Shown: positions 5,585 through 35,184 of the stretch, one piece after another
Layout: every line of letters starts with the position of its first letter
Numbering within the stretch: the stretch's first letter is position 1
From: Bacteroidales bacterium
Lineage (GTDB): Bacteria > Bacteroidota > Bacteroidia > Bacteroidales > WRLA01
NCBI GenBank assembly: GCA_028710155.1
Contig: JAQUSR010000001.1
Location: forward strand, 1 to 47,710
Length of the DNA stretch: 47,710 nt
Direction of reading: 5' to 3'
The notes under the pieces: generated by a model
Told to the model about the DNA's origin: nothing
The model's input: only the letters and a program-made list of their open reading frames with translations
Database searches by the model: none
Translations under genes and position numbers: made by a program

Positions 5585-6505
5585 TTAGATGGAAAATTTT
5601 CTTTGAATAATATCGAAAAGGCGTTTATAGGCGGAAGAAGTACTATCCCAATTTTTCTTCGGTTTCGTTTTTTCAACAAAATCCCATGCGTCTAAACCAT
5701 CTTCGAATTGATCTAATTCTTCAATAAATTGATTGTATGAACTGATATTTCCTTTAAACAATTCATTAATAAAAGTAAAACGATCGTTGATTCCGATAGC
5801 TTTTTTTAGATCCAATAATGGTGTTTGGGCAATTTTTGATAAAAGAGTGTGATCTTCGGTTTCGCGAGCCAATTTCTCCACAATTGAATTGTTGTCTTCT
5901 TGAAAGGTCTCTGCTACAATTAACGGTTCTTGAGAAAGTGATGACATCTTAGGAGGTAAAGACGTTTCAATGGGTGTTTCCTCAACAAGGTCAGATTGCA
6001 CTTCATCATGATGTTCAGTTGGTGTTGAATATATTTCTTCGCTTGTTGGTGGCTGATTCCAAATAACATTAGGAATGGATGGTTCAACTTTCGGTTCATC
6101 TATAATAGTTGATTCTTCGCCATGTGAAGGTTCGTCTTGTATTTGTATCGGTGCACTATCTGTGGAATCATCATTATCTGTAGCTGTTTCAGATGAAGAA
6201 GCTTGTGTTTCTTCGTTTGTGGCAACGTTTTCGGTGGGTGTTGCAAGATTTTCGGATGAAGAAACTTGTGATTCTTCGTTTGTGACAACGTTTTCGGTGG
6301 GTGTTGCAATATTTTCAGATGAGGTTTCCGTAGAAGCTAAAAATGTTAAAACGTTTAATTTGTCGTAGGCAATTTTTAGATAATCTTTTACTAAATCAAC
6401 TTCAAGAGTTGAAAATTTTTCTGGATTTTTTACTAAAACATCTATTTGAAGATGCGCAATTTTAAGAATATCAGAGATTTGTAATAAGGTTTGTTGTTGA
6501 TCCAT
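5585..6505 (-). CDS. Hypothetical protein with an acidic S/T/E-rich repeat linker and a conserved-looking C-terminal domain
   Basis: 306-aa ORF. The central low-complexity region contains a 21-aa tandem repeat. The C-terminal segment ([28 protein letters not shown]) looks like a family I have seen in Bacteroidota hypotheticals, but I cannot name it. Confidence 0.5.
6188..6313 (-). repeat. Tandem 63-nt (21-aa) coding repeat, two full copies plus partial flanks
   Basis: Copies begin at 6188, 6251 and 6314 (partial). They encode [21 protein letters not shown] and [21 protein letters not shown] on the minus strand. Confidence 0.85.
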
Positions 6506-6542
6506 TTTTTTTATAACTTGATAAATTTTGTATTAATTATTT

Positions 6543-6550
6543 TACTTTTG
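6543..6550 (+). promoter_or_regulatory. Bacteroidota -7 promoter box candidate for tdk
   Basis: TACTTTTG on the + strand, 52 nt upstream of the ATG at 6602. Confidence 0.4.
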
Positions 6551-6601
6551 TACAATTTTAAAAGTTGGATAAAAGTACAACATTTTGATAATACAAAATT
6601 C

Positions 6602-7192
6602 ATGTTTATAGAAAAAAATATCAACAATTCTGATAAAAAAGGTTTTATTGAAATTATCTGTGGATCAATGTTTTCCGGAAAAACAGAAGAGTTGATTCGG
6701 CGATTAAAACGTGCTAAAATTGCCAAACAACGTGTCGAAATTTTTAAACCGGCAGTAGATATTCGTTACGATGAAAACGATGTGGTCTCGCACGATGAGC
6801 ATAGCATCAAATCAACACCGGTGGCTTCGGCTTCTGAAATTTTGTTTTATTCCGGCGATGCGGATGTTATCGGTATCGACGAAGCCCAATTTTTTGATCA
6901 AGAATTGGTAGATGTTTGCAATAAATTGGCAAATAGTGGAATACGTGTAATTGTTGCCGGCTTGGATATGGATTATTTGGGAAACCCGTTTGGTCCAATT
7001 CCTTCGCTATTGGCTACAGCTGAGTATGTTACCAAAGTTCATGCTATCTGTATGGAATGTGGCGGTTTGGCACAACACTCGTATCGGACTGTTACTGACG
7101 ACAAATTGGTTTTGTTGGGCGAAACCGATCGCTACGAACCTTTGTGCAGAAGTTGTTTTCAGAAAAAAATGAAAAACGAAACCAAAAAATAA
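6602..7192 (+). CDS. tdk: Thymidine kinase
   Basis: P-loop [11 protein letters not shown], the DEAQFF motif and a C-terminal zinc-ribbon pair (C..C...C..C). The ORF-track start at 6491 adds a hydrophobic non-homologous extension that overlaps the divergent gene, so I chose the ATG at 6602 (MFIEKN...). Confidence 0.9.
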
Positions 7193-7238
7193 AATTCGTG
7201 AAGATTATTGTTTAAAATCTACACATTTTGAGCGAAAT

Positions 7239-8567
7239 ATGCAAAATGTCTTAGAAAATTTCTTAAAAAATTATCCGCAAGTAAATGTAAATCAAAACTT
7301 TCTGCTAGCAGTGAGTGGTGGTATGGATTCAACGGTATTGGCGGAGCTTTTTTTTCGGGCTAAATGGCATTTTTCGATGGCCCATTGCAATTTTCATTTA
7401 CGCGGCTCTGATTCCAATCGCGATGAACAATTTGTGCGTCAATTAGCTAAAAAATACAACGTCCCTGTTTTTGTTCAAGAATTTGATACTCTAAATTTTG
7501 CAGAAATGCAAAAAATCGGTATTGAAGAAGCAGCCCGAAAACTTCGCTATGCGTGGTTTGACGAACTTATGAACAATAATCATTTCGATTGGTTGGTGAC
7601 GGCACATCATCAAGACGATTCGATAGAAACTTTTCTGCTTAATTTGCTTCGTGGTACCGGATTGAGCGGTTTACACGGTATTTTGCCGTTGCGAGGTCGG
7701 TTGATTCGCCCGCTTACAACCGTTACACGTCAACAAATTGAACGTTTTGCTAATGACAATCAATTATCACATTGTGAAGATGTTACTAATTCTGATATTC
7801 AATTTACCCGCAACAATATTCGCAGTCGGTTGGTGCCGTTTTTGAAAGAAATTCAACCGCAATTTTCATATTTGATGGGCAATACCATTGAACATTTGCA
7901 AGGCGTTGAAAAGATTTATCAAAAAGCTATTCAACAGATTTGTAATGAAATAGTTACAAAAAAACAAAATTCCATTGAAATTGATATTGAAAAATTGTTG
8001 AAAACCGAATCGCCTTCAACGGTGTTGTTTGAAATTTTGTCTCCGTTTGGATTTAATAGCTCTGTTATCCAATCAATTACAGAATCATTGACAGGGAATT
8101 CCGGAAAAATATTTTATTCTGATAAATTTCAAGCAATAAAAGATCGTACAACGTTAATTGTCAGTAGAATCAGCAATGATGTTTCTTCTGTTTTTTCGAT
8201 TGAAAAAAATCAAAATAGAGTGGATTTTCCTGTTTCATTAACCATTGACATTCAACAAAATGATGATAATTTTATTCTACCGAAATCGAAGGAAATTGCC
8301 TGTTTTGATGCCGATCAACTAAAATTTCCGTTACAACTACGTCATTGGAAACAAGGCGATTTTTTTGTGCCGTTTGGTATGAAAGGTCGCAAAAAGTTGA
8401 GCGATTTTTTTTCGAACAATAAGTTTTCGTTGCTTGATAAACAACAAGTTTGGTTGTTATGTTCGGGCTACGATGTGATTTGGATTGTGGGTTGGCGAAT
8501 GGATAATCGTTATCGTGTAACCACCGAAACGAAACGAGTGCTAAAAATGGAATGTTTGAATAAATAG
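7239..8567 (+). CDS. tilS: tRNA(Ile)-lysidine synthase
   Basis: PP-loop motif SGGMDS near the N-terminus. Length is 442 aa, with a typical TilS C-terminal domain (KKLSDFF...W). Confidence 0.9.
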   Translation: MQNVLENFLKNYPQVNVNQNFLLAVSGGMDSTVLAELFFRAKWHFSMAHCNFHLRGSDSNRDEQFVRQLAKKYNVPVFVQEFDTLNFAEMQKIGIEEAARKLRYAWFDELMNNNHFDWLVTAHHQDDSIETFLLNLLRGTGLSGLHGILPLRGRLIRPLTTVTRQQIERFANDNQLSHCEDVTNSDIQFTRNNIRSRLVPFLKEIQPQFSYLMGNTIEHLQGVEKIYQKAIQQICNEIVTKKQNSIEIDIEKLLKTESPSTVLFEILSPFGFNSSVIQSITESLTGNSGKIFYSDKFQAIKDRTTLIVSRISNDVSSVFSIEKNQNRVDFPVSLTIDIQQNDDNFILPKSKEIACFDADQLKFPLQLRHWKQGDFFVPFGMKGRKKLSDFFSNNKFSLLDKQQVWLLCSGYDVIWIVGWRMDNRYRVTTETKRVLKMECLNK

Positions 8568-8590
8568 TAAAAATTAATACATAATAAGAT

Positions 8591-11419
8591 ATGGCAACCG
8601 AAAAAAAATTGTTTCTGTTAGACGAGATGGCGTTGATTTACAGAGCTTTTTATGCTTTGAACAAAACACCGCGACTGACTTCCTCGGGAGTGAATACCTC
8701 TGCCATTGTTGGATTTTGTAATACATTGTGGTCGATTATAAGCAAAGAAAAACCCACACATTTAGCAGTAGCTTGCGATGCGCACGCACCCACTTTTCGG
8801 CACGAGGAATTTTCAGATTATAAAGCCAATCGGCAAAAAATTCCGGAAGAAATTATCGATTCTTTGCCGTGGGTGGACAGAATTTTGGATGCTATGAACA
8901 TTCAAAAATTGATTTTGCCGGGGTTCGAGGCTGACGATATCATCGGAACCTTTGCCCGTAAAGGAGAAGAAGCCGGCTTTTCGGTGTATATGGTGAGTAT
9001 GGATAAAGATTTGGGACAATTGATAACCAAGAATATATATCTTTATAAACCGGGGCGAACAGGTGATTCTGTGGAAGTTTTGGGCGAAAAAGAAATTTGC
9101 GAAAAATTTAGTGTAGAAAATCCCTTGCAAATCATTGATTTATTGGGACTTTGGGGCGATGCATCCGATAACATTCCGGGCGTTCCGGGCATTGGCGAAA
9201 AAACAGCGAAAGACTTGCTCAAACAGTTTCCTTCTATTGAATCGCTGATCGAAAATGCCGACAAAATCAAAAATCCGCGAATGCAACAAAAAATGAAAGA
9301 TTTTGCCGAACAAGCATTGTTTTCCAAGAAGTTGGCAACCATCATAACCAATGTTCCCATGGCTTTTAATGAAGAAGAGTTGAAGGTAGTTGCCTTTGAT
9401 GAGCCGAAGTTGCGTGCGGTTTTGGAGGAATTGGAATTTAAAAGTTTTGCAACTCGTATTTTCGGAGCTTCAAACAACGTCCCGCCAACTATTGTTCAGT
9501 CACAACCAACTTTTTCCGGACAAGGTGATTTGTTTGGTCAACAAGGTGATTTGTTTGGTCATCAGGGCGATTTGTTTTTGGATGCTCCATCAAGCCGATT
9601 TAAAACGTTGGAACAGGTGCCGCATGTTTATAAGGTGGTTAAAACTAAAAAAGAAGCGGAAGAATTACGAGATATTTTATTGTCGGTCAAAGAGTTTGCT
9701 TTTGATACAGAAACTACCAGCACCGATGCTTATGCCGCTGATTTAGTAGGATTTTCGTTTGCAACGGAAGCCGGTAAAGCGTGGTTTGTTCCTGTTTCTG
9801 AGCTGTATGAAGAGTCGAAAGAGATGGTTCAAATTTTCAAGCAACCGCTTGAATCTAAAACAATTGTAAAGATCGGACAAAATTTAAAATATGATATAGC
9901 TGTGATGCGTTGGTATGGAATTCGTGTTGCCGAACCTTTGTTTGACACCATGATTGCACACTATTTGATTCAGCCGGAATTGCGGCACAATATGGATTCC
10001 ATCGCAGAAAAATTCTTGGAATACAGTCCGATAACGATTGAAACGTTGATAGGCTCAGGACGCAGTCAGTCCAACATGCGGTTAGCGTGGAAAAAATCGC
10101 CGGACAAGGTTGTCGAATATGCGTGTGAAGATGCCGATGTTACATTCCAATTGAAAAACAAGTTGTTACCGGAATTGGAAAAAGCCGATTTGACTCGATT
10201 GTTTTATGAAATAGAAATGCCGTTGGTGCCGGTTTTAACATCGATGGAGTGGGAAGGCGTGAAAATTGATACCGAATCGTTGAAAATATTTTCAGAACAA
10301 CTGACTTTGAATTTGCAAGAACTTGAAAAAGAGATATTTCAGTTAGCCGGAAAATCGTTTAACATTGCTTCTCCGAAACAATTGGGAGCCGTTTTGTTTG
10401 ACGATTTGAAGATTGCCGAGAAGATGAAAAAGACGAAATTAGGACAATATGCCACCGGCGAAGAGGTGTTGCAAAAATTACGTTTCAAACATCCAATCGT
10501 TAACAAAATATTGGATTTCAGAGGTTTATCAAAATTGCGTTCCACCTATACCGATGCGTTGCCATTGTTAATCAATAAACGAGACGGAAGAATACATACA
10601 TCTTACAATCAAACAGTTACATCGACAGGACGATTAAGCTCTACCAATCCTAATTTGCAAAATATTCCGGTAAGAACCGAATTGGGTCGCGAAATCAGGA
10701 AAGCGTTTGTTCCTCGTGATGAATCATTTACATTGATGGCTGCCGATTATTCACAAATAGAACTTAGATTGGTGGCATGTATCAGTCAAGATAAAACAAT
10801 GTTGGAGGATTTTAGAAAACATGCTGATATTCATAGTGCTACAGCATCAAGAATTTATGGAATTCCTTTGTTTGAAGTTACTCGTGAGCAACGCCGTAAC
10901 GCAAAATCTGTGAATTTTGGAATCATTTATGGAATTTCGGCTTTCGGATTGTCTGAAAATATCGGAATTTCGCGTAAAGAGGCTGCCGAAATCATCGAAC
11001 AATATTTTGAAAAATATCCTTCTATCAAACGCTACATGGAAAATCAAATTGCTTTTGCACGCGAACACGGTTATGTGGAAACATTAAAAAATCGCAGACG
11101 TTATCTTCCTGAAATTAACGCTTCTAACGCCAATATTCGGAATTTTGCGGAACGCAATGCCGTGAATGCACCGATTCAAGGTACTGCCGCCGATTTAATC
11201 AAAATTGCCATGATTGATATTTTTCAAGAATTTGAAAAACAACAACTTAAAAGCAAAATGATTTTGCAGGTGCATGACGAATTGGTATTCGATGTTTTTC
11301 AACCCGAAATAGAACAAGTGAAAGCCATTGTTCGTGATAAAATGATGAATGCCATGAAGTTGGATGTTCCTTTGGATGTGGATATTAATGTAGGCAATAA
11401 TTGGCTGGAAGCACATTAA
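8591..11419 (+). CDS. polA: DNA polymerase I
   Basis: 942 aa. It has a 5'-3' exonuclease N-terminus, a 3'-5' exonuclease domain (FDTETT) and Pol A motifs (DYSQIELR, RRNAKSVNFGIIYG, QVHDELVF). Confidence 0.97.
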   Translation: MATEKKLFLLDEMALIYRAFYALNKTPRLTSSGVNTSAIVGFCNTLWSIISKEKPTHLAVACDAHAPTFRHEEFSDYKANRQKIPEEIIDSLPWVDRILDAMNIQKLILPGFEADDIIGTFARKGEEAGFSVYMVSMDKDLGQLITKNIYLYKPGRTGDSVEVLGEKEICEKFSVENPLQIIDLLGLWGDASDNIPGVPGIGEKTAKDLLKQFPSIESLIENADKIKNPRMQQKMKDFAEQALFSKKLATIITNVPMAFNEEELKVVAFDEPKLRAVLEELEFKSFATRIFGASNNVPPTIVQSQPTFSGQGDLFGQQGDLFGHQGDLFLDAPSSRFKTLEQVPHVYKVVKTKKEAEELRDILLSVKEFAFDTETTSTDAYAADLVGFSFATEAGKAWFVPVSELYEESKEMVQIFKQPLESKTIVKIGQNLKYDIAVMRWYGIRVAEPLFDTMIAHYLIQPELRHNMDSIAEKFLEYSPITIETLIGSGRSQSNMRLAWKKSPDKVVEYACEDADVTFQLKNKLLPELEKADLTRLFYEIEMPLVPVLTSMEWEGVKIDTESLKIFSEQLTLNLQELEKEIFQLAGKSFNIASPKQLGAVLFDDLKIAEKMKKTKLGQYATGEEVLQKLRFKHPIVNKILDFRGLSKLRSTYTDALPLLINKRDGRIHTSYNQTVTSTGRLSSTNPNLQNIPVRTELGREIRKAFVPRDESFTLMAADYSQIELRLVACISQDKTMLEDFRKHADIHSATASRIYGIPLFEVTREQRRNAKSVNFGIIYGISAFGLSENIGISRKEAAEIIEQYFEKYPSIKRYMENQIAFAREHGYVETLKNRRRYLPEINASNANIRNFAERNAVNAPIQGTAADLIKIAMIDIFQEFEKQQLKSKMILQVHDELVFDVFQPEIEQVKAIVRDKMMNAMKLDVPLDVDINVGNNWLEAH
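9521..9583 (+). repeat. Tandem 21-nt (7-aa) repeat x3 in the polA inter-domain linker
   Basis: QGDLFGQ (9521-9541), QGDLFGH (9542-9562), QGDLFLD (9563-9583). Confidence 0.85.
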
Positions 11420-11541
11420 TGTATTGCGAGTTTTGTGATGAAAAAATGTTGGAATGAAAACAATATTTTTCTAACAAAATGATGAATTCAAGGTGTAAAA
11501 CATTGAATTTCTAAAAATATAACTACCTATTAATAGATAGC

Positions 11542-12741
11542 ATGAAATTACATATAGCTATTCCTGTGATGCGAGAACGAGCATGGATTCCGCAAACGAT
11601 GGATTGTATTGCACAACAATACGATGCAGGTGATTTTTGCGTATATGTATGTGTTAATCAGCCGGATATTTGGTGGGATGATGTAGAAAAACGTGAAGTT
11701 TGTTTGGATAACGAAGCAACTTTGGAATGGTTACACAACGAAAATCGTTTTCCGTTAGAGATATTGGATTTTTCGTCGAAAGGGCGGGGGATGAGCGAAA
11801 AAAAATCGGGAGTAGGATATGCGAGAAAAGCATTGTTTGACAATATTTTAAACGTTGCATCTTCGAGTGATTTAGTGATGAGTATGGATGCCGACACTAC
11901 TTTTCGAAAAGACTATTTTCATGCAGTTCGACAACAATTTCAATTGTTTCCGGATCATGTAGCTATGGCAACGCCCTATTATCATTCATTGACGGGTAAC
12001 GAAAATATGGATCGGGCAATGTTACGATACGAAGTTTATATGCGACTGTATGCGTTGAATCTCACAAGGATAGGAAGTCCGTACAATTTTACGGCGTTGG
12101 GATCAGCCATTGTAGTTCCGGTAGGAGTGTTGAAGGCGGTCAAAGGTATTACACCGCGCACTGCAGGCGAAGATTTTTATCTGTTACAAAAATTGCGTAA
12201 GTTTGGAAAAATCATTCAAACGTGTTCCGAGAAAGTATATCCTGCAACACGTTTTTCAGATCGAGTAGCATTTGGAACCGGACCGGCTATTTCTAAGAAA
12301 ATGATTGATTTGCAACGATCTTATCCATTATTTACACCGGATTTATTTGATGCAATTCAACAAACCTATCAACAATTTCCGCTACTTTGGGAAAACGATG
12401 TTGCTACACCAATGGACGATTTTTTATTTCGTCAATGGGGAGAACGTTGGTGGATACCGTTGCGAAAAAATTTTAAGACAAAAACACATTTTGTTCGAGC
12501 TTGTTACGAAAAAATTGATGGATTAAGAATTTTGCAATTTTTAAAACAGTCGATTCAAGAAACAGATGACAAGAAAAATTTTTTGAAAAATTGGCAATGC
12601 CTTTTTGATGGAGAAATGTTATCAGTTGATTTTCAAACAGCAACAATAGATGAATTGCAACGAATTAGAAATCGGTTAGTTACATTGGAAGAAAATCTTC
12701 TCCAAAAAAATCATCAAAATAATAATGAAATAAATGAATAA
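11542..12741 (+). CDS. Glycosyltransferase-like protein (GT-A fold, family 2-like)
   Basis: 399-aa ORF. The N-terminal beta-strand start (LHIAIPVM) and a DxD-like MDADT motif point to a GT-A fold. The assignment is tentative. Confidence 0.5.
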   Translation: MKLHIAIPVMRERAWIPQTMDCIAQQYDAGDFCVYVCVNQPDIWWDDVEKREVCLDNEATLEWLHNENRFPLEILDFSSKGRGMSEKKSGVGYARKALFDNILNVASSSDLVMSMDADTTFRKDYFHAVRQQFQLFPDHVAMATPYYHSLTGNENMDRAMLRYEVYMRLYALNLTRIGSPYNFTALGSAIVVPVGVLKAVKGITPRTAGEDFYLLQKLRKFGKIIQTCSEKVYPATRFSDRVAFGTGPAISKKMIDLQRSYPLFTPDLFDAIQQTYQQFPLLWENDVATPMDDFLFRQWGERWWIPLRKNFKTKTHFVRACYEKIDGLRILQFLKQSIQETDDKKNFLKNWQCLFDGEMLSVDFQTATIDELQRIRNRLVTLEENLLQKNHQNNNEINE

Positions 12742-30531: not shown

Positions 30532-30538
30532 CCAAAAA

Positions 30539-30747
30539 ATGGAACAAGATAAAGCAATAAATATACATTTTCTGAGTACGAATCATTCCAATGTAAGTCC
30601 ATCGGCTGAAAAAAGGATATGATTTTTATGTCACAAAACAAAGATTTTAATGAGCCGGATTCGGTTGTGAATTTAGGTGTGGGCAAAAATATGGTTTCGT
30701 CTATTCGCTTTTGGATAAAAGCCTTTGGACATAGCAATAATAATTAA
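30539..30747 (+). pseudogene. Degraded, truncated 5' fragment of a DUF4007-like gene
   Basis: Pieces in three frames read MEQDKAINI / FSEYESFQCKS / RLKKGYDF / SQNKDFNEPDSVVNLGVGKNMVSSIRFWIKAFG, then a stop at 30745-30747. This matches my recollection of the DUF4007 N-terminus (FSGHESFxCR..WLKKGYDF....LGVGKNMVxSIRFWxKAFG). A full-length protein would be about 300 aa. Confidence 0.4.
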
Positions 30748-30759
30748 AACAATTATGAT

Positions 30760-31884
30760 ATGCCAATAAAAGATTTACACGCAAAACCATTTGACGATGG
30801 TACAATAACAAAGTTGGAAATTTTTGAAAATTATGCAAAAGAATGGATTCCGACCTTTGTTATGAGTGATTATTATAGAGAGGTTTGGATTTTTGATTTT
30901 TTTGCAGGCACAGGATACGATATTAAAGGTGTTGCAGGTAGTCCAATACGTATTTTGAAACAAATAAAAGGACAAGTCGGGAATATTTTCAAAACACAAA
31001 CGAAAGTAAATATTTGTTTTAATGAATTAGACAAAGATAAGTTTAATTCATTAAAACAATCTTGTATCGATTTTATTATTAATGATGCTGAATTAGAGCG
31101 GTTACAAAAAAACAATTTTTTGAAAATTAATTATAAAAATGAAGATGTGGCCAAATTATTTCCAATTTCATTACAAACTATAAAACAATATCCTTCATTA
31201 GTTTATTTAGACCAAAATGGAATTAAATTTTTGTCAAACTCATATTTTTTAGCACTTGCAGAAACGAAAGAAACTGATTTTCTCTATTTTCTATCTTCAT
31301 CATACATAAATCATTACGGAAAAACAGTAGCATTTAAATCCACCATAAATATTGATGTTGATAGGGCAAGGCAAAATCCATATAAATATTTTCACAGAAA
31401 TGTATTAGAACAAGTTAGAGAATGGTTGCCAAAAGATTCTAAATGTGTTTTGTACCCATTTACGATTAAAAAGGGAGCGAATATCTATGGAATAATTTTT
31501 GGTGCTTCTCACCCTCTTGCCGTAAATAAATTTCTTACAACTGCTTGGAATCAAAACTCAATTAATGGAGAGGCAAATTTTGATATTGATGATGACGAAC
31601 AAAAATTACAACCGTTATTATTCGAAGATATGAAATTGCTAACAAAGAAAGAAAGTTTTAAACAAAAACTGATAGAAAAAATTCTAAACGGCAATTTAAA
31701 AAACAACAAAGATGTTTTTGATTTTACTCTACAACAAGGACACATTGCAGAACATGCAGCAGAAGCTGTAAAAGAATTGAAAAAGAAAGGGAAAATACTA
31801 TATGATGAAAAATCTCCGTTAATTAATTATGATAATGTGTATAAAAAGAAAAAAATCATTGAATATAATGTGGTTATAAAATGA
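30760..31884 (+). CDS. tcmP: Three-Cys-motif partner protein TcmP-like (Rossmann/methyltransferase-fold)
   Basis: 374 aa. N-terminal H..K...KLEIFENYAKEW pattern. SAM-motif-I-like DFFAGTG (30895-30915). FNELDKDKFNSL and LVYLDQNG (D at 31210) segments. It sits immediately upstream of, and 4-nt overlapping, a DUF5131 gene, which is the defining context of TIGR04474 as I recall it. Confidence 0.7.
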   Translation: MPIKDLHAKPFDDGTITKLEIFENYAKEWIPTFVMSDYYREVWIFDFFAGTGYDIKGVAGSPIRILKQIKGQVGNIFKTQTKVNICFNELDKDKFNSLKQSCIDFIINDAELERLQKNNFLKINYKNEDVAKLFPISLQTIKQYPSLVYLDQNGIKFLSNSYFLALAETKETDFLYFLSSSYINHYGKTVAFKSTINIDVDRARQNPYKYFHRNVLEQVREWLPKDSKCVLYPFTIKKGANIYGIIFGASHPLAVNKFLTTAWNQNSINGEANFDIDDDEQKLQPLLFEDMKLLTKKESFKQKLIEKILNGNLKNNKDVFDFTLQQGHIAEHAAEAVKELKKKGKILYDEKSPLINYDNVYKKKKIIEYNVVIK

Positions 31885-32612
31885 AAACAACAAAAATAGA
31901 ATGGACAGATAAAACCTGGAATCCAGTTACAGGATGTTCAAAGATTTCAGCAGGTTGCGTAAATTGCTATGCAGAAGTTATGGCTCGCCGCCTTCAAGCC
32001 ATGAGACAAAGTAAGTATAAAAATGGATTTGGATTGACACTGCACGAAGATGTGTTATCAAAACCAGTACATTGGAAAACACCACATACAATTTTTGTAT
32101 GTTCAATGAGTGATTTATTTCATGAAGATGTTCCTTTTGATTTCATTGATAAAGTGATAAAAACTATAGAATTAACACCACAGCATAGGTATCAATTATT
32201 GACTAAGAGGGCAGAAAGAATGGCCGAGTATTTCCAAACCCGAAAAATTCCAAAAAATGTATGGTTGGGAGTTACAGTAGAAATACAAAAATCGAAAAAT
32301 AGAATTGATATTCTTAGGAAATTGGCGGCTCCTATACGGTTTTTATCTTGTGAGCCTTTATTAGAAAATTTAGACAAATTAGATTTGACAAATATCGATT
32401 GGGTTATAGTTGGAGGAGAGAGTGGTATCTCTGCCCGTCCAATGAAATCCGAATGGGCAATGTCTATTCAAGAACAAGCAGAAAAGCAAGGTTCTGCCTT
32501 TTTCTTCAAACAATGGGGCACTTGGGGAAGTGATGGAATAAAAAGAGATAAACACAAAAACGGTAAACTCTTAAACGGTAAAGTGTGTCAACAAATGCCA
32601 CAAAGAAATTAA
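31881..32612 (+). CDS. DUF5131 / phage Gp37-Gp68 family three-Cys-motif protein
   Basis: The N-terminus IEWTDKTWNPVTGCSKISAGCVNCYAE gives C19-x6-C26-x2-C29. Other family hallmarks: FVCSMSDLFHEDVP, QLLTKR, WLGVTVE, LSCEPLL, DWVIVGGESG..ARPM, FFFKQWG. Confidence 0.85.
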   Translation: MKTTKIEWTDKTWNPVTGCSKISAGCVNCYAEVMARRLQAMRQSKYKNGFGLTLHEDVLSKPVHWKTPHTIFVCSMSDLFHEDVPFDFIDKVIKTIELTPQHRYQLLTKRAERMAEYFQTRKIPKNVWLGVTVEIQKSKNRIDILRKLAAPIRFLSCEPLLENLDKLDLTNIDWVIVGGESGISARPMKSEWAMSIQEQAEKQGSAFFFKQWGTWGSDGIKRDKHKNGKLLNGKVCQQMPQRN

Positions 32613-32635: not shown

Positions 32636-33706
32636 ATGACTCTACCATCCGACAATAAATTAGACATTCGCCCGCTTTCGCAAATCTATAATAATACAGT
32701 TACAACTTACAAATATTATTGGTTTGTGTCTATTCTTGATATTGTGTCGAAAGAAGGGCGGCGGCGTATTTCGTTTTGGGAAATAATTGTCGGGATGGTA
32801 GCCGAAGCGTGGTATCCGATACATTATTTCCGTTTATCGTATGGAAAATCCGACTCTTTATACGAGCAAATTATTGAACTACAACACAAATTAAATATTC
32901 CTATTGATGCTCAAAAAACGGATATTAAAAAGAGGATAATAAACAATCTTGAAAATTCTCAAATCAAAAGTCTTTTGCGTGTTTTTATATTAAATGTTCC
33001 TTATCGTTTTTTATCGCCTTGGATTCATTTTACAACAAATGCAGATGTTTCCATTCAATCAAAAACGTTTGCAAATAACTGTCTGTATGCCATTGATGGA
33101 GAGTATATTGACGTGAATTCATCGTGGCAGCAATATTTAACAGATCATTACGCCATACTACGCGATTTTACCTTTTGGAACTTGACTATTTTTCTGCAAA
33201 AACGTAATCCAAATGTGCCAGATATTCCGTCAAAATTGATAAAACCAATTCAACGTAATTCTCTTACCAAACAACACCATTTTTGGGATGCTTATATTGA
33301 TATTGTTGGATCAATAAAATGTATATACACAGGGAAAACGTTGCATAAAAATGAGTACGACTTAGACCATTTTATTCCTTGGAGTTATGTCTGCCACAAT
33401 TTACTTTGGAATTTATTACCAGCCGATTCGAGTATAAATTCGTCAAAAAGTAATAATTTACCGTCATTGGATGACTATCTGCGCCCTTTTGCACAAATGC
33501 ACCATAATGCGCTGAAAGAACTTTATCCACGCAATCCGAGTAACAAACTTTTAGAAGATTATCTGGTCTTGGACGATTCTATTTCTGAATTAGTGGGCTA
33601 TTCCGATGAAGATTTTTTTCGCATATATCAAAAAACCTTTTCTCCAATGACGCAAATTGCCGCAAATATGGGTTTCTCATATTGGCAAAATCCGCTTGTA
33701 AAATGA
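32636..33706 (+). CDS. HNH endonuclease-domain protein with an unassigned ~230-aa N-terminal domain
   Basis: C-terminal HNH core YDLDHFIPWSYVCHNLLWNLLPADSSINSSKSNNLP (DH at 33365-33370). The N-terminal region contains YKYYWFVSILDIV. I used the ATG at 32636. The ORF-track GTG at 32585 would overlap the upstream gene by 28 nt. Confidence 0.8.
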   Translation: MTLPSDNKLDIRPLSQIYNNTVTTYKYYWFVSILDIVSKEGRRRISFWEIIVGMVAEAWYPIHYFRLSYGKSDSLYEQIIELQHKLNIPIDAQKTDIKKRIINNLENSQIKSLLRVFILNVPYRFLSPWIHFTTNADVSIQSKTFANNCLYAIDGEYIDVNSSWQQYLTDHYAILRDFTFWNLTIFLQKRNPNVPDIPSKLIKPIQRNSLTKQHHFWDAYIDIVGSIKCIYTGKTLHKNEYDLDHFIPWSYVCHNLLWNLLPADSSINSSKSNNLPSLDDYLRPFAQMHHNALKELYPRNPSNKLLEDYLVLDDSISELVGYSDEDFFRIYQKTFSPMTQIAANMGFSYWQNPLVK

Positions 33707-34557
33707 AGAAAATTAAAAATAATTCGCATTTGACAGCTATTGCGCGCGAATCATTATCATTTCCAACACGCTGGTTAAAAGGCAAAAATCTTTTGTGCAG
33801 CGAAATTTTGGATTTTGGATGTGGTTTTGGTTTTGATACAGACGAACTTCAAAATCAAGGTTATAATATTATCGGTTACGACAATTATTATCGCCCTGAT
33901 TATCCCGATAAACGATTTGATACAATAGTATGCAATTATGTACTAAACGTTTTAGAACCAGAAGAACAAGTAGAGGTTTTAATGTCTGTTTCAGAACTTT
34001 TGAAACCAACAGGAACGGCATATTTTGCTGTGCGGCGTGATTTGAAAACAGAGGGATTTCGCACGCATTACGTTCATAAACAACCAACTTACCAGTGCAA
34101 TGTGATTTTGCCTTACAAAAGTATCTTTCAAAATGAAAATTGTGAAATATACGAGTATCGGCATTACAATCAAATTGCGCACAACTCCGATTGTCCGTTC
34201 TGTAATTTGGCAAAAGACAAAGAACTGCTTTGCGAAACGGCTACTGCATTTGCTTTTTTCGATGGATTTCCCGTAAGTAAAGGTCATACGCTAATCGTTC
34301 CAAAACGTCACGTAGCAAGTTATTTCGACCTTTCTACACACGAGCAACGAGCCTTGTGGCTGTTGACAAATCGATGCAAAAAAATTCTTGAAAAACGTCA
34401 CAATCCGGACGGTTTCAACGTTGGCATAAACGTTGGCGAATCTGCAGGACAAAGCATTTTTCACGTCCATATTCATATCATTCCGCGCTACAAAGGCGAT
34501 GTTGCCAATCCGCGTGGTGGCGTGCGTTGCGTTATTCCAAATAAACAAAATTATTGA
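33703..34557 (+). CDS. Fusion protein: SAM-dependent methyltransferase (dnd-associated TIGR04096-like) plus HIT-family nucleotide hydrolase/transferase domain
   Basis: The N-terminal half has TAIARESLSFPTR, motif I ILDFGCGFGFD, GYDNYYRPDYP and VCNYVLNVLEPEEQ. The C-terminal half has CPFC, FPVSKGHTLIVPKRH, AGQSIFHVHIHIIPRYKGD (histidine triad at 34462-34476) and a PRGGVRCVIP tail. The ATG at 33703 overlaps the HNH stop (ATGA). Confidence 0.85.
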   Translation: MKKIKNNSHLTAIARESLSFPTRWLKGKNLLCSEILDFGCGFGFDTDELQNQGYNIIGYDNYYRPDYPDKRFDTIVCNYVLNVLEPEEQVEVLMSVSELLKPTGTAYFAVRRDLKTEGFRTHYVHKQPTYQCNVILPYKSIFQNENCEIYEYRHYNQIAHNSDCPFCNLAKDKELLCETATAFAFFDGFPVSKGHTLIVPKRHVASYFDLSTHEQRALWLLTNRCKKILEKRHNPDGFNVGINVGESAGQSIFHVHIHIIPRYKGDVANPRGGVRCVIPNKQNY

Positions 34558-34927
34558 TTTCAACATAAGGCATCCATCTTCGCAATATCTGCAGAAGAAC
34601 CCGATTCTTTGGACTAATTTATTCATGTAAAAATATCAATCTATACCGCTGAAACCCGCTCTTTCAATACTCTTGCGTTCAAGGTTCTAACAGAAATTGT
34701 TACGCTATTTTTCTAACTTCGTCTCACAAAAATCAACAATTTTATAATTCCCTATCTTCGTCAATAAGTCTCTAAAATAAATTAGTTCAATTTTAGAATC
34801 ACTATAAGGAGATTTGTTAGCAACTGATGATTGATACAGAATTGGTTAGCGGTGAATATTTAAGACTAAACTCATTAAACCGCAACAAATTTTACAAAAA
34901 GATGATTGTAGTTTTTATGATTATCAG

Positions 34928-34963
34928 AAAAATTCACGTTTTTTCTAAAAAACGTGAATTTTT
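34928..34963. repeat. Perfect 17-bp inverted repeat with a 2-nt spacer (terminator and/or operator candidate)
   Basis: aaaaattcacgtttttt-ct-aaaaaacgtgaattttt (34928-34944 / 34947-34963). It lies 370 nt after the cassette stop and ends 3 nt before a TAnnTTTG box. Confidence 0.7.
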
Positions 34964-34965
34964 AT

Positions 34966-34973
34966 TAGCTTTG
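34966..34973 (+). promoter_or_regulatory. Bacteroidota -7 promoter box for the short 34990 ORF
   Basis: TAGCTTTG on the + strand, 17 nt upstream of the ATG at 34990. Confidence 0.4.
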
Positions 34974-34989
34974 TCGCAAATATTAAGCG

Positions 34990-35184
34990 ATGAAAATAGC
35001 TGAATTACTAGCAAATACGATAGATAGGATGCCGTCAGATTATGTGTTCACCTATTCCGATTTAAATATAGAGGTGAAGCAAAAAAATACGGTAGTTAAG
35101 GCGTTGAATATGCCGGCAGATACCATCAAAAAAAGCAGAATGAAACTCATTCTGCTTTTTTCAATCGATAAAAACTATTCTTAA
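34990..35184 (+). pseudogene. Possible truncated 5' fragment of an AbiEi/DUF6088-like wHTH antitoxin gene, or a small stand-alone ORF
   Basis: 64-aa ORF. The first ~40 aa (MKIAELLANTIDRMPSDYVFTYSDLNIEVKQKNTVVKALN) resemble the N-terminal pattern I recall for AbiEi_4/DUF6088 proteins. The last ~20 codons run through a terminator hairpin. Confidence 0.25.
35128..35161. terminator. Bidirectional rho-independent terminator
   Basis: aaaaaaaGCAGAATGAaacTCATTCTGCtttttt: a 9-bp stem (35135-35143 / 35147-35155) with an A-run and a T-run, 20 nt from the mmdB stop. Confidence 0.65.

Follow-up and report, generated by a model that had tools for sequence, protein, structure and literature searches.

What does a 243-residue protein of the DUF5131 family do, and why is its gene tied to that of a methyltransferase-like partner? 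The question is raised by 47,710 nucleotides of DNA from Bacteroidales bacterium (assembly GCA_028710155.1, contig JAQUSR010000001.1, positions 1 to 47,710), here called the window, in which a DUF5131 gene directly follows a TcmP gene. The original prediction, made from the letters alone, held that three N-terminal cysteines of DUF5131 may ligate an iron-sulfur cluster in a non-canonical radical S-adenosylmethionine (SAM) enzyme. The explanation that best joins all our results is that DUF5131 is probably the catalytic and conserved member of a mobile TcmP plus DUF5131 module that takes part in genetic conflict. Judged from sequence, DUF5131 very likely holds a [4Fe-4S] cluster and carries out SAM chemistry. 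We favor DNA as the substrate of the pair, and the case for a role in defense is evenly balanced.

A coupled TcmP and DUF5131 gene pair

The pair consists of two genes.

30760 to 31884, forward strand: TcmP (TIGR04474) gene, 374 residues; predicted class I SAM-methyltransferase fold with a C-terminal GMT-like winged helix-turn-helix (wHTH); PADLOC PDC-M30A
31881 to 32612, forward strand: DUF5131 (PF07505) gene, 243 residues, ATG start; PADLOC PDC-M30B/M41B; predicted radical SAM enzyme

The call of DUF5131 at this position was borne out. The protein matches PF07505 with an E value of 1.5e-106 (355.8 bits against a gathering threshold of 28.9), and its residues 3–240 cover profile positions 1–243 from end to end. 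It is an intact, ordinary member that keeps every family-invariant residue and departs from the family nowhere. An HMMER scan of 1.84 billion cluster representatives returned homologs in 37,722 clusters at 50% identity (E ≤ 1e-3), and an exact-sequence look-up in public assemblies found no copy of the window protein itself. TcmP scores 121.8 bits against TIGR04474 (cutoff 53), and its C terminus matches the GMT-like wHTH of Pfam PF22560. The TGA stop of TcmP overlaps the DUF5131 ATG by 4 nucleotides (ATGA, 31881–31884), an arrangement suited to translational coupling, as had been proposed. They lie adjacent and match both halves of PDC-M30 (A, 1.5e-138; B, 6.1e-117), a defense candidate named by guilt-by-embedding (Payne et al., 2024, preprint).

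The cysteine triad is conserved throughout the family

Three segments of the DUF5131 gene bear on its predicted chemistry.

31935 to 31967, forward strand: codons of C19-x6-C26-x2-C29, predicted [4Fe-4S] ligands by conservation and by alignment to C18/C22/C25 of a canonical radical SAM protein
32103 to 32114, forward strand: S75-M-S-D78, proposed counterpart of the radical SAM "GGE" SAM-binding motif; S75 in 147/150 and D78 in 150/151, past the second modeled β-strand (residues 70–75)
32412 to 32426, forward strand: G178-G-E-S-G182 loop past modeled strand 174–180; G178 in 147/150, G179 in 144/150, E180 in 147/150, G182 in 145/150

Read from the DNA, the codons TGT (31935), TGC (31956), and TGC (31965) encode C19, C26, and C29, in agreement with the positions and the x6/x2 spacing first described. 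The triad starts directly after IEWTDKTWNPVTG. Conservation was counted in the best 150 of the 37,722 relatives, one per 50%-identity cluster and 44–66% identical to the query. Lack of conservation across the family had been named as a ground for rejecting the original prediction. The three cysteines proved to be invariant: among the aligned cluster representatives, Cys stands at C19 in 146/146, at C26 in 146/146, and at C29 in 145/146, and the spacing is kept in 127 of 129 motif matches. Y30 and A31, which follow the third Cys, are nearly invariant, as are W13-N14-P15 and G18 before the first.

Further acidic and Cys positions had also been described as conserved. This held for the acidic residues D78, E158, and E180, but not for the cysteines C74 (Cys in 54/150; Asn is commoner, 82) and C157 in LSCEPLL (Cys in 57/150). 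The blocks around these two and the GGESG loop are conserved at S75, M76, D78, F80, H81, S156, E158, P159, G178-G179-E180, and G182. Residue 74 itself (32100–32102; Asn in 82, Cys in 54) directly precedes the invariant S75 and lies 45 residues past the cluster motif. The catalytic Cys of spore photoproduct lyase (SPL) presumably lies at a similar distance from the SPL cluster motif.

The triad aligns with a canonical radical SAM loop

Among the subgroups that RadicalSAM.org derives from SFLD, DUF5131 appears as Megacluster-5-2, "with a CX6CX2C motif" (PMC9477430). In the similarity network, Megacluster 5 also holds SPL (5-3) and MJ0683-like proteins (5-1), and the placement of DUF5131 in it is purely bioinformatic (PMC9477430). 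A radical SAM reading of the triad is thus already catalogued and is no discovery by itself. As a novelty the original reading falls away; as a reading of the protein it gained support from alignment to a protein that matches PF04055, the radical SAM core.

Because a direct search with PF04055 came back empty, the link was made through TIGR04471 ("radical SAM mobile pair protein A"), which is matched by 49 of 49 diverse DUF5131 members with a best E value of 3e-30. The window protein scores 93.9 bits (E = 1e-26) against a curated cutoff of 355, and its neighbor is TcmP, with no TIGR04470 partner; it is not an equivalog of pair protein A. A search of plasmids by tblastn recovered a TIGR04471 protein, WP_004329299.1, from a Bacteroides eggerthii plasmid (L013:3474-4142). 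This protein contains NIVVGCTIGCPYCYARNN, with a canonical C-x3-C-x2-C (GCTIGCPYCYA), and passes the thresholds of PF07505 (2.8e-33) and also of PF04055 (33.2 bits, cutoff 29.5). BLASTP aligned the window protein to it over 207 residues (E = 6e-28, 31% identity), with a gap of three residues that falls precisely between Cys1 and Cys2. When the DUF5131 family profile was compared with pair protein A by hhalign, the probability was 99.9% (E = 3e-32). The two have the post-strand motifs SxxD, TKR, EP, and GxExG in common, the GGESG loop of the window protein corresponding to GTETG in pair protein A. Because the alignment to a PF04055-positive CX3CX2C protein holds residue for residue, the DUF5131 triad appears to be homologous to the cluster loop of radical SAM enzymes, with three residues added. 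We regard the link from DUF5131 to the PF04055 core as transitive but strong.

Pair protein B, which matches PF04055 (2e-17) and carries VNPYVGCPHACRYCYA, was also compared with the DUF5131 profile by hhalign (78% probability, E = 1.9e-5); its NP..GC..C..CYA segment was aligned and SMSD was paired with GSVTD. We take pair protein B to resemble the MJ0683-like group; the Cys loop NP..GC...C..CYA is common to it and DUF5131. On the B. eggerthii plasmid (NZ_CP072228; L013, 2701-5014), the A and B genes of the mobile pair overlap and lie 3' of a gene for a metallo-β-lactamase (MBL)-fold hydrolase. Relaxase and recombinase genes are nearby, and this is another mobile radical SAM pair related to DUF5131. 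The radical SAM defense system Ophion was also considered and is unrelated.

TcmP has a methyltransferase fold and adjoins DUF5131 in most loci

The AlphaFold2 (AF2) model of TcmP is confident (predicted local distance difference test [pLDDT], 85.1; predicted template modeling score, 0.84). Its top Foldseek matches, both in the PDB and among viral structures, are all class I SAM-dependent methyltransferases with a probability of 1.0, and include catechol O-methyltransferase, DOT1A, PsiM, METTL16, and a small-RNA 2'-O-methyltransferase. On this model TcmP is assigned the class I SAM-methyltransferase fold. Few residues are conserved across 61 diverse TcmPs: K18, Y25, the D46-x-F-x-G-x-G52 of motif I, an acidic residue at 88/89 (motif II), and D151. 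The earlier description of TcmP as bearing a SAM motif agrees with the fold and with motif I. D151 is invariant and lies within a motif IV-like (L/I)D(P/Q)xG, which reads DP(F/Y/W)G in many clades and DQNG, lacking the aromatic residue, in the clade of the window's TcmP. For comparison, catalytic motif IV in enzymes that methylate amino groups takes forms such as (D/N/S)PP(Y/F/W).

Linkage was measured in 80 loci taken from contigs of one genome per species. A first TcmP hidden Markov model (HMM), built from close homologs, found a partner in 25 of the 80; iteration raised this to 68, or 68 of the 73 loci with enough flanking sequence. As a check on drift, late-iteration matches were sampled, and 10 of 10 passed the TIGR04474 cutoff. 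TcmP occurs in three arrangements: on the strand of DUF5131, either upstream or downstream of it, or downstream in convergent orientation. The two proteins are also found as a single chain (P0236, 558 residues), and DUF5131 is fused to ParB_N and HTH_ParB domains in P0127 and P0130 (about 515–519 residues). Adjacency and fusions suggest that TcmP and DUF5131 form a physical complex and point to DNA as its substrate; from the wHTH, the ParB fusions, and the genomic context we infer that a nucleic acid is acted upon. Other long DUF5131 forms (P0178, P0206, P0195, and P0204) are extended at the C terminus by sequence that matches no family.

A conserved protein with exchangeable partners

DUF5131 proteins are 50–80% identical across phyla, while BLAST often fails to align the TcmP proteins that accompany them. 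Where two DUF5131 proteins are 70–80% identical, the TcmPs beside them share a median of 25%, and 26% of these pairs gave no long alignment. The contig closest to the window (L007) gives a clear example. Its DUF5131 protein is 80% identical to that of the window, and the DNA is 82% identical from 31886, 5 nucleotides into the DUF5131 open reading frame (ORF), to 34553, and 83% identical at 30536–30729. The TcmP genes that lie between these two conserved blocks (30730–31885 against 3418–5820 in L007) are unrelated by BLASTP (E = 0.02) and match different PADLOC sub-models. The TcmP segment of the window also has the lowest GC content of the region (27–30%). We interpret these alignments as a swap of TcmP as a cassette at the window relative to L007. 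Divergence and cassette exchange would fit a TcmP that acts as the specificity or sensor subunit and a DUF5131 that acts as the constant catalytic subunit.

A related arrangement is seen on pSymA of S. meliloti 2011 (L097, 1246596-1259354), where two distinct TcmP genes come after a single DUF5131 gene: one is of M30A type and on the DUF5131 strand, the other of M41A type and on the opposite strand. An ORF for a PADLOC PDC-S28-type helicase is directly beside them (the L097 ORFs concerned are 5962–6780, 6816–8063, 8081–9007, and 9086–11623). The published account of this region describes TcmP (SMa2243) and the Hna defense helicase (SMa2245). The arrangement suggests that one catalytic subunit serves two partners.

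Relatives lie in defense islands, plasmids, and phages

Sampled relatives of the pair adjoin a variety of genes: Schlafen-helicase and FRG genes; two Dcm methylases and McrBC; GmrSD, an SMC-like ATPase, and an SLFN/Fic protein; HNH, N6-methylase, Dcm, LlaJI-like genes, and Vsr; and a type IIG-like enzyme. One sampled relative lies in a prophage-like region. Matches to the DUF5131 family were found in 448 plasmid records and 180 phage records. In Gordonia phage ThankyouJordi (L010, 3980-5847), convergent DUF5131 (gp41) and TcmP (gp42) genes are placed between the integrase and the immunity repressor. Longer, solo forms of DUF5131 with insertions within the domain occur in the early regions of Che9c (gp68; L011, 386 residues) and RcapNL (L012, 360 residues); both are near RecT or a C5 methylase and have no TcmP nearby. 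The searched literature held no experimental tests of PDC-M30 or PDC-M41.

A proposed mechanism

In the mechanism that we propose, C19, C26, and C29, in a CX3CX2C motif lengthened by three residues, would ligate a [4Fe-4S] cluster whose fourth, unique iron would bind SAM. The reduced cluster would cleave SAM to give a 5'-deoxyadenosyl radical, which would abstract hydrogen from the substrate. TcmP would bind DUF5131, supply recognition of the target (most likely DNA), and possibly methylate it; the radical step would then modify or damage the target that TcmP has selected. The outcome could be defense against phages or plasmids, or a marking of DNA for discrimination between self and non-self.

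Several results weigh against this proposal. In a lax Pfam scan, neither the window protein nor 49 diverse relatives matched PF04055 at E values up to 5, and for the relatives only PF07505 and GP88 were returned. The aromatic residue of the CxΦC motif usually stacks on the adenine of SAM in radical SAM enzymes; at the corresponding position (N28, 31962–31964 in the window), the 146 aligned proteins have N in 95, H in 35, F in 6, and Y in 3. No sequence relative of DUF5131 was found in the PDB, by a single-sequence search or with a 49-sequence profile. The AF2 model of DUF5131, built from 27 close homologs, is weak (pLDDT 65.6, with the Cys-loop region, residues 8–54, below 50). Its low-confidence core is an alternating β/α barrel with six β/α repeats between residues 70 and 212, and its Foldseek matches in the PDB are generic TIM barrels with template modeling (TM) scores of 0.25–0.37. 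From this weak model, SPL (4fhf) was listed at rank 12 (E = 0.022, TM 0.36) and lipoyl synthase at rank 31. The original prediction had suggested comparing the predicted fold with radical SAM TIM barrels. A β/α barrel was indeed predicted and TIM barrels were matched, but weakly, and the model is best described as compatible with a radical SAM core and not diagnostic; cluster geometry is beyond its reach.

The remaining points concern function. The earlier statement that no experimentally determined activity is known for the family agrees with our literature search, which gave no biochemistry or genetics of any DUF5131 family member, only the RadicalSAM.org classification and incidental mentions. 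Methyl transfer by the TcmP of the window is uncertain because DQNG replaces DP(F/Y/W)G. One sampled pair (L008) lies among housekeeping genes only, with no defense neighbors, and the solo DUF5131 genes in the early regions of lytic phages argue that not all members are defense genes.

Alternative explanations

The alternative that survives best keeps the chemistry of the proposed mechanism and changes its role. A base chosen, and perhaps also methylated, by TcmP would be further altered by DUF5131 through radical chemistry, and the resulting DNA modification would benefit the mobile element that carries the pair, for example against host restriction, instead of defending the host. The phage records, which include early or DNA-metabolism regions by RecT or a C5 methylase, and the still more numerous plasmid records speak for it, as does the frequent position of the pair next to other DNA methylases. 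ParB-domain fusions, characteristic of the DNA methyltransferases of plasmids and phages, are also counted in its favor. We nevertheless consider it unlikely: the Gordonia phage pair sits in the lysogeny module, at an integrase/repressor site typical of prophage-expressed defense, other pairs are embedded in chromosomal defense islands, and a modified base is unreported.

Modification of tRNA or rRNA is improbable. Here the pair would work like Trm5 followed by TYW1, or like RlmN/Cfr, with a translational function or one directed at phage tRNA. METTL16 and the small-RNA 2'-O-methyltransferase among the structural neighbors of TcmP would fit, and some phage annotators label DUF5131 "RNA methyltransferase." We also count for it the D-P-(F/Y/W)-G motif IV of many TcmP clades, which we take to be Trm1-like. 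The patchy, mobile distribution of the pair and its hypervariable, swapped partners are unlike such a function, however; the wHTH and the ParB-HTH domains speak for DNA instead, and the constant neighbors are DNA restriction and modification genes.

That the triad is a structural metal site, either Zn or a non-catalytic Fe-S cluster, is decidedly improbable. On this view, SAM chemistry would have been lost and the barrel would work without radicals, as a metal-dependent hydrolase or nuclease. The replacement of the CxΦC aromatic by Asn or His and the lack of a direct PF04055 match in the window protein are in keeping with this, and the invariant His, Glu, and Asp residues past the β-strands (H81, H102, E134, E158, and E180) could serve such an enzyme. 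Endonuclease IV and other metal-dependent TIM barrels do appear in the Foldseek list (ranks 17, 19, and 27), but these matches derive from a low-confidence model. Against it, SxxD, TKR, EP, and GxExG are kept in pair protein A, which is PF04055-positive and has CX3CX2C, and the radical SAM loop is matched by the three-Cys pattern with the invariant Tyr-Ala after it. The reading is also at odds with the curated classification of DUF5131 as radical SAM (PMC9477430).

We give very little credence to a light-independent DNA repair enzyme akin to SPL, in which radical hydrogen abstraction would act on a base lesion: the common megacluster (5-2 and 5-3), the place of 4fhf in the Foldseek list (E = 0.022), and the SPL annotation of one phage homolog record are set against a hypervariable, swappable methyltransferase-like partner that a repair enzyme would not need, a concentration in defense islands and mobile elements that would be unexpected of it, and the absence of any SPL family model among the Pfam or NCBIfam matches of the window protein and its relatives.

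Returning to a TcmP-guided radical SAM enzyme in genetic conflict, one specific form of it is possible, though we hold it only tentatively. The pair may be a self-contained "radical" counterpart of restriction-modification, in which a hypervariable, swappable DNA reader with a methyltransferase fold, TcmP, directs a conserved radical SAM enzyme to particular sites or bases in DNA, and the 5'-deoxyadenosyl radical either installs a new DNA modification or damages foreign DNA directly. Immunity aimed at DNA would then have a new biochemical class, found in bacteria, archaea, plasmids, and phages in more than 37,000 sequence clusters. Few radical SAM subgroups without an assigned reaction are as large as DUF5131. 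The near-obligate pairing, the fusions, the conservation of one subunit against the swapping of the other, and the TcmP paralogs on pSymA make the pair a tractable and well-founded target in the search for new radical chemistry on DNA and, it may be, for a new immunity mechanism.

Comparison with known systems

Within Megacluster-5-2/PF07505 (the "phage Gp37/Gp68 family"), the window protein is a full-length match with CX6CX2C exactly as described. TIGR04471 pair protein A is likewise mobile, is likewise one half of an adjacent gene pair, and has the same post-strand motifs. It differs in its CX3CX2C with an aromatic residue (CPYC), in lacking the N-terminal IEWTD..TWNP block of DUF5131, and in its partner, which is a second radical SAM protein (pair B) where DUF5131 has TcmP. 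SPL acts on DNA. It and the MJ0683-like proteins are in the same megacluster as DUF5131, but they have CX3CX2C spacing, and SPL has no TcmP partner. The gene pair and island setting of PDC-M30/M41 are as defined, whereas at the window the surrounding Ssp/Pbe genes are decayed and there is no intact embedding system.

Trm5/TYW1 and RlmN/Cfr are methyltransferase and radical SAM routes to the modification of nucleic acids, and Dnd, Ssp, and Dpd are DNA-modification defense systems. By analogy, the logic of the pair may resemble the former, with a nucleic acid as the common substrate of a radical SAM enzyme and a Rossmann-fold enzyme that uses SAM. It may also resemble the latter, as a mobile modification module beside restriction genes. 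The pair belongs to none of these systems by sequence, and no dedicated nuclease is consistently linked to it.

The window holds a decayed island

Three further features flank the pair.

30536 to 30757, forward strand: SspB (DUF4007) remnant, 5' part only, at the left island edge; 83% nucleotide identity to L007 3226–3417
32636 to 33706, forward strand: HNH_4 protein, 356 residues; Pfam HNH_4, 1e-11; 85% identical to the L007 neighbor
33703 to 34557, forward strand: methyltransferase-HIT fusion, 284 residues; Pfam HIT, 1e-23, and methyltransferase domains; 89% identical to the L007 copy

SspB is a phosphorothioation gene. The window retains an ORF of 39 residues (30628–30757) with 77% amino acid identity to the SspB of L007 (3217–4080), which PADLOC identifies with an E value of 5e-87. 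In L007 the island runs SspB, SspC fragment, TcmP, DUF5131, HNH, methyltransferase-HIT, PbeA, a 77-residue ORF, and a PbeC-like ATPase, with PbeA directly 3' of the methyltransferase-HIT gene. At the same place in the window, some 0.6 kb (34558–35180) holds only short ORFs (34827–35003 and 34990–35184), followed by a housekeeping gene. This segment has no similarity to L007 as DNA or as protein and is probably a deletion scar at the right island edge. From this comparison the window is read as containing a decayed Ssp/Pbe island in which the Ssp and Pbe parts were lost and the pair is intact. Because the island has decayed, the window locus is not the best model for study; the intact pair could be cloned as a 1.85-kb unit.

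The HNH_4 and methyltransferase-HIT genes were considered as parts of the module and rejected, as they lie beside the pair in 1 of 93 loci (L007) and there together with Pbe genes. The two genes overlap by 4 nucleotides. The N terminus of the fusion matches TIGR04096, a phosphorothioation-associated methyltransferase, with an E value of 1.6e-17, under the cutoff. Its methyltransferase part is class I, and its HIT domain is a nucleotide hydrolase/transferase domain.

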